The translations under genes and the position numbers were made by a program. A stretch of DNA of 37,196 nucleotides. Origin: an uncultured archaeon (GTDB taxonomy: Archaea; Asgardarchaeota; Lokiarchaeia; Sigyniarchaeales; SOKP01). The stretch covers positions 61,842 through 99,037 of the forward strand of contig CAZWEM010000012.1 of NCBI GenBank assembly GCA_964632315.1, given 5' to 3'. Shown here one piece after another: positions 14,812 to 25,175 of the stretch (the first letter of the stretch is position 1; every line of letters begins with the position of its first letter). The notes beneath the pieces were generated by a model, which worked only from the letters and a program-made list of their open reading frames with translations, was not told the origin of the DNA and ran no database searches.

Positions 14812-14940
14812 TCATAGATCTTTTATTTGCTCTTTTAAATGAATATTCCAACAATGAAAGCAAATAAAAGTACTTGGACTAAGTTTGACTAAATCTTTTT
14901 CTGACCTTATCATTCCACATTTACTGCATTTTCTCTTCAT
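14812..14940 (-). CDS. 42-aa zinc-finger microprotein (CxxC-x18-CxxC)
   Basis: Manual translation: MKRKCSKCGMIRSEKDLVKLSPSTFICFHCWNIHLKEQIKDL*. Below the ORF-track size cut-off. Confidence 0.75.
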   Translation of the reverse strand: MKRKCSKCGMIRSEKDLVKLSPSTFICFHCWNIHLKEQIKDL

Positions 14941-15008
14941 AAATGATCTAGCGATAAACTGAAATTAAAATTTGATCATCAAAAAAAGTTATCAATAAAG
15001 GAAAAAGT

Positions 15009-15147
15009 AATGGATGTTTCGCCATAAAATAAAAAATTAAAGGGGGAGAAAATTAAACCGCTTTTTCGGTTTAATAGAGGGCTTAATCAAGCAAATCGAA
15101 TTGACCTACCTTGAAATCCAATGTACTATTTATGGCTTTCATCCATT
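15009..15147 (-). ncRNA. Candidate ~140-nt structured small RNA
   Basis: The ends pair through two 8-bp helices and there are two internal hairpins. A TTTATATA box lies 23 nt upstream and an oligo-U run immediately downstream. Confidence 0.55.
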
Positions 15148-15521
15148 TAATTATATGTTTGTTCGAAGTTATATAAAAATGATAGAGTCTATCTCAAAAT
15201 TGTGATCATAACACGCAATTAATATTGAGATCGACAATAATGTCTATATCTGAATTCAAATTCATAATAAGGACCTTAGTAAAAATCGGAGAATTTTTCT
15301 TCATCGAAAATTAGATTTTCACTTAAATTAAAAGTTGAAATTAAAAGAAAAAATGGAAATAATATTTAGAATCTAAATCCGTAATATATGTTTATGATTA
15401 ATAATAAACTGCTTCTCAGAGAAATGGGGTTGAAGAAAAAAGTTGGAATCAAATAATCTATCGAGAATTATAAATAATATTAATTTTTACTCTTCAAAAG
15501 AAAATTTATAGGAATTATAAA

Positions 15522-16058
15522 ATGAGTTTTCATATATCTCAGAAAAAGATCAAAGCAAGAATAAAAAAATTAGCGGTCGAAATCTATAATTATTACAAAA
15601 AAAAGAAAATTAATGAAATTCATTTCATATTCATCACAACGAGTTCTTTCGTGTTTGCTTCTGACTTAATTCGACAATTATCTCGTTTTGACATTAAAAT
15701 TCATACGGAACACATTTCTATTAGATCTTATTCAGGAGTAGAATCATCTGAGGTATTTATAAGAAAAGAAAAGCTTAATAGAATGAATTTAGATAAAAGG
15801 GCGGTTCTAATCGTTGATGATATATTAGATACAGGAAATACCTTAAATTGCTTAAACAAGGCGATACACGGGCTTTATAATCCTTTAATGATTGATTTTT
15901 GTTGTCTCATGAGAAAGAGAGGGAAAGAGAGAAACATCGATTTTTATGTTAAATTTATCGGCTTTGATATTCCTAATATATTTGTTGTAGGATATGGACT
16001 TGACTATAACGGGCTCTATAGAGAATTGCCTTTTATAAAGGAATTAAAATCCCACTAA
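15522..16058 (+). CDS. hpt: Hypoxanthine(-guanine) phosphoribosyltransferase
   Basis: PRPP motif VLIVDDILDTGNTL, SY loop and FVVGYGLDY...YRELP. Confidence 0.88.
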   Translation: MSFHISQKKIKARIKKLAVEIYNYYKKKKINEIHFIFITTSSFVFASDLIRQLSRFDIKIHTEHISIRSYSGVESSEVFIRKEKLNRMNLDKRAVLIVDDILDTGNTLNCLNKAIHGLYNPLMIDFCCLMRKRGKERNIDFYVKFIGFDIPNIFVVGYGLDYNGLYRELPFIKELKSH

Positions 16059-16753
16059 CTAAAATCAAATACATTTGATCTATTTTTTTTACCAACAATT
16101 TTTAGTAAATTCATTTTTCTTAGGCAGTAAGTCATCATACTTGCTAATCTTTGAGAGATAATAATTGATTTAGAGAGATCATTATTGGTAAATGGTGTTT
16201 CTAAATCGCTTGGCAGTAAGGCTAGAAAATGTTCTGGACTCGAAAATAATTTTTGATCTAAAATTCGGATTAAATTCCTATCTTTTATGCTCCATCCCCT
16301 TCTTTTCCAACTTCCTCTATCATCATTAACCCATATCTCATTAGCTTGAATAATTAATGCCTCAATCATCAAATTAGGTTCACAAATTAGGTCAGGCATC
16401 CTAATTAGTTCTTCAAAAATGGCATAGTAATTACAGTGTTTAGGAGATAATGTTCTTTTTATAATTTTTTTATTATTTAGATCAAACTTGAGGATCCATT
16501 TATCTTGGATAATGGGAAATACCAACAAAACTTTATAGTCCCTAATAAGTGTTTCAAGTTTCTTTTTTATCGCGGAAAAATTCTTGGTCTGAACTTCTAT
16601 TAAATAGTTTTTCCTAACAATGTCAATAATAAATTTATCCACATGGTATTCTATTTTATCTCCTGGTTGGTGATAATATTCCTTCAATTGTAAATGGAGT
16701 GAACTTTCAGAGGAGCTATTATTTTGATTAACAATTTTACTTAAATTAATCAT
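16055..16753 (-). CDS. Hypothetical protein, PD-(D/E)xK-like nuclease fold with C-terminal winged helix
   Basis: ESSLH...E...IDIV...IEVQ pattern and a C-terminal HTH-like segment. Overlaps the hpt stop by 4 nt. Confidence 0.55.
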   Translation of the reverse strand: MINLSKIVNQNNSSSESSLHLQLKEYYHQPGDKIEYHVDKFIIDIVRKNYLIEVQTKNFSAIKKKLETLIRDYKVLLVFPIIQDKWILKFDLNNKKIIKRTLSPKHCNYYAIFEELIRMPDLICEPNLMIEALIIQANEIWVNDDRGSWKRRGWSIKDRNLIRILDQKLFSSPEHFLALLPSDLETPFTNNDLSKSIIISQRLASMMTYCLRKMNLLKIVGKKNRSNVFDFS

Positions 16754-24740: not shown

Positions 24741-25175
24741 ATGAGCGAAATTAATTTGGTTGCACCATGCGGCATATATTGTGGAGCGTGTCGATCATAT
24801 TTAGTTCAGAAAAAAAATCTTTTTAAAGAAAAAAATCGTAAATCTGGATGTCTAGGTTGTAGAATTCGTAATAAAAACTGTACTTTTATTAAAAAAGGTT
24901 GTCCACCTATTAGAAAGGGTGAATATGATTTTTGTTATGAATGTGAATCATTTCCATGCGATAATTTAAAAAAAATTGATAAAACTTATGTCTCTAGATA
25001 TAATGTAAGTCCAATAATGAACCTTAAAAGACTCGTTGATATAGGAATTGACGCTTGGATTCAAGAGAAGAAAAATTTATATAAGTGCCCAAATTGTGGA
25101 GGAGAAATTTGTGTTCACGATGCAGAATGTTTTGATTGTGGACTTAAAATTAATCCTAATTTGGATGGTGAATGA
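24741..25175 (+). CDS. DUF3795-family Cys-rich protein with C-terminal zinc ribbon
   Basis: APCGIYCGAC, CLGCR, FCYECESFPC and CPNCGG...CFDCG motifs. Confidence 0.85.
   Translation: MSEINLVAPCGIYCGACRSYLVQKKNLFKEKNRKSGCLGCRIRNKNCTFIKKGCPPIRKGEYDFCYECESFPCDNLKKIDKTYVSRYNVSPIMNLKRLVDIGIDAWIQEKKNLYKCPNCGGEICVHDAECFDCGLKINPNLDGE

Follow-up and report, generated by a model that had tools for sequence, protein, structure and literature searches.

The window studied here, a stretch of 37,196 nucleotides from the assembly of a Loki-type archaeon, holds on its minus strand what appears to be an archaeal small RNA gene carrying a bulge-helix-bulge (BHB) intron. Comparison with related genomes identifies the element as a copy of an uncatalogued family of predicted small RNA genes, found in almost every genome of one Loki-type family. 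The explanation that we consider probable as a whole is that of a small RNA gene specific to this family and transcribed on its own, present in the window as an intron-containing copy. The features of the locus, in window positions, are as follows.

15202..15214, minus strand: inverted repeat GTGTT-N3-ATCAC, ~25-40 nt upstream of the TATA box, conserved in the aligned subfamily-1 orthologues
15177-15170, minus strand: TATA box TTTATATA, conserved at the same distance in all aligned orthologues
15147-15129 with 15028-15009, minus strand: closing stem, in which AAUGGAUG-aaa-GCCAUAAA pairs with UUUAUGGC-gaaa-CAUCCAUU
15113..15147, minus strand: predicted exon 1, made of the 5' strand of P1 (15147-15127) followed by the initial portion of the invariant loop
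15142-15083, minus strand: 19-codon ORF with an ATG start
15124-15113, minus strand: part of the invariant loop contributed by exon 1, ACAUUGGAUUUC
15114-15087, minus strand: hairpin 1, confirmed as it had been described from the sequence alone
15083..15112, minus strand: predicted 30-nt BHB intron, corresponding to hairpin 1
15007..15082, minus strand: predicted exon 2, made of the remainder of the loop, P3, the 3' loop strand and the 3' strand of P1
15082-15076, minus strand: part of the invariant loop contributed by exon 2, GCCCUCU
15075-15052, minus strand: apical hairpin P3 (hairpin 2), AUUAAACCG/CGGUUUAAU
15051-15031, minus strand: C/U-rich 3' loop strand
15030-15009, minus strand: 3' strand of P1
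15006-15002, minus strand: U-run UUUUU; T-runs follow the closing stem in all orthologues
14812-14940, minus strand: gene of a 42-aa zinc-finger microprotein (CxxC...CxxC), a real conserved small gene

The minus-strand elements claimed by the sequence-only reading of this DNA (TATA box, closing stem, two hairpins, UUUUU and ORF) are all present, and the architecture that it proposed is the minimum free energy structure given by RNAfold. The energy of this structure is -36.8 kcal/mol, against -23.3 +/- 3.2 kcal/mol for 200 dinucleotide shuffles, none of which was as good (z = -4.2). The usual spacing between an archaeal TATA box and the transcription start is 23-27 nt. From this spacing, transcription would begin ~25 nt past the TATA box, at about 15150-15147, and it would end at the U-run, which is likely the terminator. 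In close orthologues, the inverted repeat upstream of the TATA box takes the form GTGTT-ATC-AACAC and occupies orthologous positions in the loci L009, L015 and L225-L233; it may be a site for a transcription factor or regulator.

The inner part of the element was matched by BLAST in ten genomes of the same genus. In its own 4.45-Mb assembly, the element has a single BLAST match, which excludes a dispersed repeat. When a consensus-like orthologue served as query, BLAST retrieved the RNA in 7 of the 13 genera of the family. In the alignment of the loci with their flanks, the TATA box stands at a fixed distance and a T-run follows the closing stem. This agrees with the earlier proposal of an unannotated structured RNA gene on the minus strand with its own promoter and terminator. 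The sequence of the closing stem is wholly different between species in these aligned loci, while its pairing is retained. RNAalifold detected 17 pairs with compensatory changes in the aligned orthologues. For the closing stem and hairpin 2 alone, 90% of the cells are paired and 12 pairs have changed on both sides; none of 500 shuffles was as good, and slid partners were at most 54% paired. In a separate structure count, the closing stem and hairpin 2 of the orthologues were 98% paired.

To describe the distribution of the family, we built a covariance model (R1) from 27 intron-less copies. R1 matched 116 of the 131 genomes of the family, in 12 of its 13 genera and with 1-7 copies per genome, and none of the 19 genomes in the three sister families of the order. 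At the scale of the class, it matched 111 out of 126 genomes of the Promethearchaeota (Loki-type) family versus 0 out of 24 in sister families. The RNA was not found in genus g18, where R1 matched none of the five genomes. A homologue was also sought beside a conserved MBL gene (see below) in genus g18 and in family f2, where only chance-level matches were obtained, the best of them lying on a coding strand. In the genome of the window, R1 found the window copy (65.8 bits) and a second, intron-less copy on another contig (C40:30764-30890, 82.6 bits).

A weak third R1 match was observed in the same genome (C16:31972-32073, minus strand; 28.9 bits). It retains UUUGGAUUUCGCCCUCU and a GGAAAG/CUUUCC outer stem, has no apical hairpin and could represent a variant of the RNA or a copy in decay.

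Among the catalogued RNA families, no relevant match was found with Rfam at E <= 10, either at the locus or at seven intron-less loci. In the same way as for the sequence-only reading, which had recognized no tRNA, SRP RNA, RNase P RNA or C/D layout, each of these identities was rejected. ARAGORN found no tRNA in the window, and no T- or D-loop motifs of a tRNA or permuted tRNA are present. The SRP RNA and the RNase P RNA of the genome were both found elsewhere. Alignments display no conserved C/D boxes, and the Rfam matches to C/D box RNAs have E > 0.6 and are located elsewhere. An H/ACA RNA was also rejected: the lower stem runs into P1a without a conserved ACA, and the P3 loop is 3-7 nt long and variable in sequence. 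No conserved GA pairs of a K-turn were seen by eye in the internal loop of P1. Finally, a Y RNA was rejected, the Ro60 protein (TROVE, PF05731) not being found in this 99.5%-complete assembly.

The proposal of a ~140-nt RNA with two inner hairpins has to be revised, as hairpin 1 is absent at exactly its position in most members of the family. Many of the BLAST matches join positions 19-45 and 72-114 of the query back to back, omitting hairpin 1, and in the intron-less loci ACAUUGGAUUUC is directly followed by GCCCUCUAUUAAAC. From 132 distinct copies, the junction GGAUUUC|GCCCUCU is contiguous in 96. An insert of 29-32 nt separates GGAUUUC from GCCCUCU in 17 copies, including that of the window, and the other 19, mostly from another genus, have an insert of 30-52 nt located 3 nt upstream (GGAU|UUC).

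Both insertion sites present two opposite 3-nt bulges with a 4-bp helix between them, which corresponds to the definition of the BHB motif (a 4-bp helix flanked by two 3-nt bulges; PMC7714728). At the window site, the central helix pairs GAUU of the exon (15118-15115) with GAUU at the 3' side of the intron (15088-15085), the bulges are UC|A (15114-15112) and AA|G (15084-15082), and the distal stem of the intron is formed by 15111-15103 and 15097-15089. The upstream site has the same geometry, with UUGG of the exon paired with CCAA or CCGA of the intron and with the bulges AU|A and AA|U. For both sites, a cut after the second nucleotide of each bulge followed by the joining of the exons gives exactly the intron-less sequence. 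In addition, a scan of JGI metagenome contigs, with a pattern specific to the sub-lineage of the window, retrieved only long DNA contigs, five with the 30-nt intron and four without it. The promoter, stems and flanks of these contigs are nearly identical, so the gain or loss of the intron was precise and recent.

The structure of the intron was counted in an alignment of 14 distinct introns of the window site. In this alignment, 91.5% of the cells are paired, against 76.7% after shuffling (none of 500 shuffles as high), and slid partners reach at most 53%. All seven pairs of the distal stem show compensatory changes, and the central helix is paired in all 14 introns, with three one-sided switches (U-A to U-G, U-G to U-A). 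Apart from these BHB constraints, the sequence of hairpin 1 varies freely. We conclude from this comparative evidence that hairpin 1 (15112-15083) is a predicted tRNA-type BHB intron, lying outside the mature RNA.

The distal helix is 7-9 bp long and covaries, and the outer helix between the exons comes down to one invariant G-C pair. Compared with the strict hBHBh' form, which has helices on both sides of the bulges, the motif is thus of a relaxed type and would depend on an endonuclease of broad specificity. Two EndA genes (PF01974; contigs C28 and C8) and one RtcB gene (contig C26) are present in the assembly. Two EndA paralogues imply a heterotetrameric enzyme, which accepts relaxed motifs. 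The splicing endonuclease of this genome would accordingly be of the alpha2-beta2 type, a relevant point here because of the single G-C pair outside the bulges.

From these observations, the processing of the RNA may be proposed as follows. The pre-RNA would fold with the long closing stem P1, the apical hairpin P3 and the BHB motif between them. The splicing endonuclease, formed by the two EndA paralogues, would cleave both sides just past the second nucleotide of the bulge, and RtcB would join the exons, with the removal of 30 nt (15112-15083). The product would be a mature rod of ~115 nt in which the invariant loop ACAUUGGAUUUC-GCCCUCU is contiguous, next to the invariant base of P3 and opposite the C/U-rich strand.

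The alternative derived from the sequence-only reading is that of one unspliced ~140-nt RNA in which hairpin 1 is functional, or of a structured leader controlling the downstream zinc-finger microprotein. The stable fold of the pre-RNA is compatible with this alternative, as are the location of the zinc-finger ORF, 65 nt downstream on the same strand, and its conservation in several orthologous loci. However, hairpin 1 is missing from the 96 copies mentioned above and from near-identical orthologues, and its sequence is free outside the BHB constraints. A U-run and a separate TATA-like box moreover lie between the RNA and the zinc-finger ORF. The zinc-finger gene is absent from most of the orthologous loci, and in four intron-less metagenome orthologues (L226, L230, L231 and L233) it is upstream and divergent, so the RNA cannot be its leader. 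We consider this alternative very unlikely.

Another alternative is that the element is mobile, degenerate or protein-coding, i.e. a MITE, a divergent 5S rRNA or a short coding gene using the 19-codon ORF. Each of these options has its own argument: the RNA is similar in size to the 5S rRNA, for which Rfam finds no gene in this genome, and an ATG-initiated frame of 19 codons is present. Against a MITE, there are only two good copies in the genome (R1), synteny is conserved across genera and no terminal repeats are present. The ORF, which the sequence-only reading had noted, is not conserved: its start is located in a stem whose sequence no orthologue shares, and its frame crosses the intron. 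Moreover, the P3 loop is 3, 4, 6 or 7 nt long, which breaks any frame and excludes a conserved reading frame.

The 5S option is contradicted by a real 5S gene located elsewhere. No match to the Rfam 5S model (RF00001) was obtained at the locus. The Rfam 5S is missing from this genome and from nearly all of the family, which is also the only one to have the RNA, and is found in a sister family. The only 5S-like gene of the genome (C49:~24886-25076, plus strand) is circularly permuted, with orthologues at the loci L126, L129 and L130. The gene opens with the back part of the 5S, and a small loop closes helix I. Its ends, GCG-CCGG-AA|C and CCGG-UC|U-CGC, form a BHB junction whose ligation restores a normal loop C. 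Such permuted genes, which are the real 5S of the family, score 25-33 bits, under the Rfam cut-off, and this explains the apparently missing 5S. Altogether, a MITE, a 5S rRNA or a coding gene is extremely improbable.

With the preferred reading, that of a spliced small RNA, the removal of the intron leaves a sequence of 117 nt in which the closing stem and hairpin 2 still fold. If hairpin 1 is an intron, the mature RNA would thus be ~115 nt long and comprise one apical hairpin together with an internal loop of invariant sequence. This mature RNA is predicted as a rod composed of an outer stem, an inner stem, a large internal loop and the apical hairpin AUUAAAC-N/N-GUUUAAU. The outer stem is commonly 5' GAAGG(G) / 3' CCCUUC in the family, and the window copy has AAUGGAUG/CAUCCAUU in its place. 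At least 99% of the copies gathered share the same 5' loop strand AUUGGAUUUCGCCCU, and 15 loop positions show this level of identity; these values are biased upward because the model and anchors used for the collection contain the loop. Six of the nine base pairs of P3 are invariant and the top three covary. The 3' loop strand is C/U-rich (UCUCUCCCU and UCUCUCUUAACCU in the family, UUUUCUCCCCCU in the window copy). The closing stem and the 3' loop strand of the window copy are unusually divergent.

The invariant loop and the base of P3 could together form a recognition platform for a conserved partner acting in trans. This partner is perhaps a protein, within a small RNA-protein particle, the option to which we give the most weight although we hold it short of an even chance. 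Antisense pairing through the C/U-rich loop and some other type of partner are each somewhat less likely, to about the same degree. A protein is favoured because none of the RNA targets examined was significant, because conservation extends over more than 20 nt including paired positions, and because both lineages of the gene keep their neighbours.

An antisense function supposes that the RNA, spliced as proposed above, is a trans-acting regulator whose unpaired C/U-rich loop (UUUCGCCCUCU, with UCUCUCCC opposite) pairs with purine-rich, Shine-Dalgarno-like mRNA starts. All copies have unpaired, C/U-rich loops, the genome uses Shine-Dalgarno sequences of the GGAGGUGA type, and the gene is multicopy with divergent stems, all of which would suit such a regulator. 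Nevertheless, in 3,867 predicted start regions, the duplex energies were no better than with shuffled loops (1st percentile of -17.6 against -16.1). The best site precedes an ATP-citrate-lyase-like gene (contig C48); 29 orthologues have an ordinary Shine-Dalgarno sequence there, without conservation of the match. Furthermore, an invariance of more than 20 nt and the invariant pairs of P3 exceed what a seed requires. Such a regulator is possible, although we hold it to be rather unlikely.

The strands of the internal loop could instead pair with the 16S rRNA in its central domain, at helix 22 (UAGAGGGCGGGAGAGG) or in the region of the 690 loop (GGGGUGAAAUC), the RNA being then an assembly chaperone or a guide, in the manner of snoRNA-like pockets. 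Contiguous complementarities of 9+7 nt and of 12 nt to the 16S of relatives were found, which were suggestive on the partial 16S of a relative, and an invariant rRNA target would explain the invariant loop. On the full 16S, marginal values were obtained for one type of paralogue (18 of 400 shuffles) and for loop 1 taken by itself (14 of 400). Yet three of the four paralogue types remained within chance on the full 16S of the same genus (46, 51 and 99 of 400), and the RNA has no ACA box, K-turn or C/D boxes. In addition, the 16S segment is conserved well beyond the family bearing the RNA, and genus g18, which is without the RNA, also has it. The complementarity of the loop strands to the 23S rRNA was not significant, and none was found to the 5S, SRP RNA, RNase P RNA and tRNAs of the genome itself. 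A role directed at rRNA is therefore quite improbable.

The gene neighbourhoods are conserved in both paralogue lineages across genera, with an RNase Z-like MBL protein, an RNase J-like beta-CASP protein and Zn-ribbon microproteins. The lineage of the window copy adjoins a BpsA-SpeD fusion gene, followed in most genomes by the gene of the RNase J-like beta-CASP protein. The other main lineage is directly downstream of the gene of a 267-aa MBL-fold protein in at least five genera. This protein (L090:1701-2501, minus strand, and homologues) is single-copy, 62-84% identical across the family and weakly RNase Z-like (43 bits, for a cut-off of 293). The MBL gene of the genome of the window (C40:23857-24654) lies 6 kb from the RNA copy on the same contig. 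The MBL neighbour is also present in genera and families without the RNA. A Ras-like GTPase gene was observed ahead of the 267-aa MBL-fold gene.

The zinc-finger microprotein gene is found near the RNA in the genomes G016, G032 and G025, in one genome of another genus and in metagenome contigs. Its orientation with respect to the RNA changes from one lineage to another. A second, distinct Zn-ribbon ORF, of 51-52 aa, is convergent with the RNA gene of the second lineage and just downstream of it in two genera (e.g. L092:1802-1957 and L103:1745-1903). No significant homology was detected between these two Zn-ribbon neighbours.

A broader reading would make the RNA a subunit of a lineage-specific RNA-protein particle acting in RNA processing, which would have arisen in the one Asgard family where endonuclease-type mini-introns have spread to the 5S rRNA, to mRNAs and to this RNA. 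As part of the same joint reading, the candidate partners in the particle would be the RNase Z-like MBL protein, the RNase J-like beta-CASP protein and the Zn-ribbon microproteins. We regard this reading, partners included, as speculative and unlikely. The conserved neighbours could be plain synteny instead. Moreover, genus g18 has a permuted 5S without the RNA, which argues against a strict link between the RNA and the spread of mini-introns.

Several known systems can be compared with this RNA. In the papers that could be searched, known hosts of BHB motifs are tRNAs and rRNAs, together with the cbf5 pre-mRNA of Crenarchaeota (PMC2738675), and a BHB-excised segment of a 5' UTR has been described in Haloferax (HVO_1309; PMC7714728). 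The intron of the window resembles these archaeal BHB introns by the geometry of its helix and bulges, by cuts that would restore a conserved sequence, by its patchy presence among close relatives and by the presence of genes encoding EndA and RtcB. It differs from them by its host, a predicted stand-alone small non-coding RNA, and by its size, that of a mini-hairpin of 29-32 nt. Here, in addition, half of the central helix comes from the invariant exon, only one base pair is left of the outer helix, and two insertion sites are located 3 nt apart. In the searchable literature, we found no report of a BHB intron hosted by a stand-alone small RNA, nor any account of this RNA family.

A permuted SRP RNA processed by the endonuclease has been reported in Thermoproteus tenax (Plagens et al. 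2015, PMC4731332). As in that case, the tRNA-splicing endonuclease would act here on a structured RNA other than a tRNA, and the processing would rebuild an important conserved loop. The T. tenax case concerns the gene permutation and circularization of a universal RNA, whereas ours would concern an ordinary intron in a lineage-specific RNA.

The comparison with archaeal H/ACA guides is limited to architecture, both being rods in which a large internal loop, made of two conserved single strands, separates a lower stem from an upper hairpin. Unlike these guides, the RNA described here lacks an ACA box beyond the lower stem, has neither K-turn nor K-loop in the upper stem and shows no significant rRNA complementarity, and its loop strands are of ~20 nt instead of 5-10 nt. 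Multicopy regulatory sRNAs with C-rich loops are known in Firmicutes (RsaE/RoxS and LhrC1-5). Like our RNA, they exist as several paralogous copies per genome, display unpaired C/U-rich motifs on a stable scaffold and have a promoter and a terminator of their own. Our RNA differs from them in being archaeal, without any sequence relation to them and without enrichment in complementarity to start sites; its conserved part also exceeds the length of a seed by far and extends to invariant base pairs.

An essential-looking and uncatalogued RNA would thus join the few conserved non-coding RNAs of the archaea closest to eukaryotes. With two insertion sites separated by 3 nt and an intron gained or lost very recently between near-identical genomes, it suggests that endonuclease-type introns can colonize a stand-alone small RNA. 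Considered with the permuted 5S and the mRNA mini-introns of the same genomes, the RNA points to a lineage where cut-and-join RNA processing may have become general, which would bear on the origin of intron-rich gene expression. Such RNAs could provide compact substrates (~145 nt) to test intron recognition and intron gain. Interrupted genes of this kind are missed by gene finders and RNA models.

Other RNAs of this genome and one further neighbour of the RNA gene gave minor observations. In its own assembly, ARAGORN detected only ~30 tRNA genes, many of them 100-105 nt long. Such lengths correspond to inserts of ~30 nt and suggest that mini-introns are pervasive; many tRNA genes of the genome probably escape detection. 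Two sub-threshold matches to the SRP RNA were also seen, on the contigs C78 and C64. Between the BpsA-SpeD and RNA genes, the window encodes a 232-aa protein (16055-16753, minus strand) that matches no Pfam or NCBIfam family. At the same place, a 214-aa ORF was clustered across nine loci (e.g. L084:1751-2392). By eye, the N-terminal part of the 232-aa protein shows a D...E-x-K pattern, like that of nucleases with a restriction-endonuclease fold.
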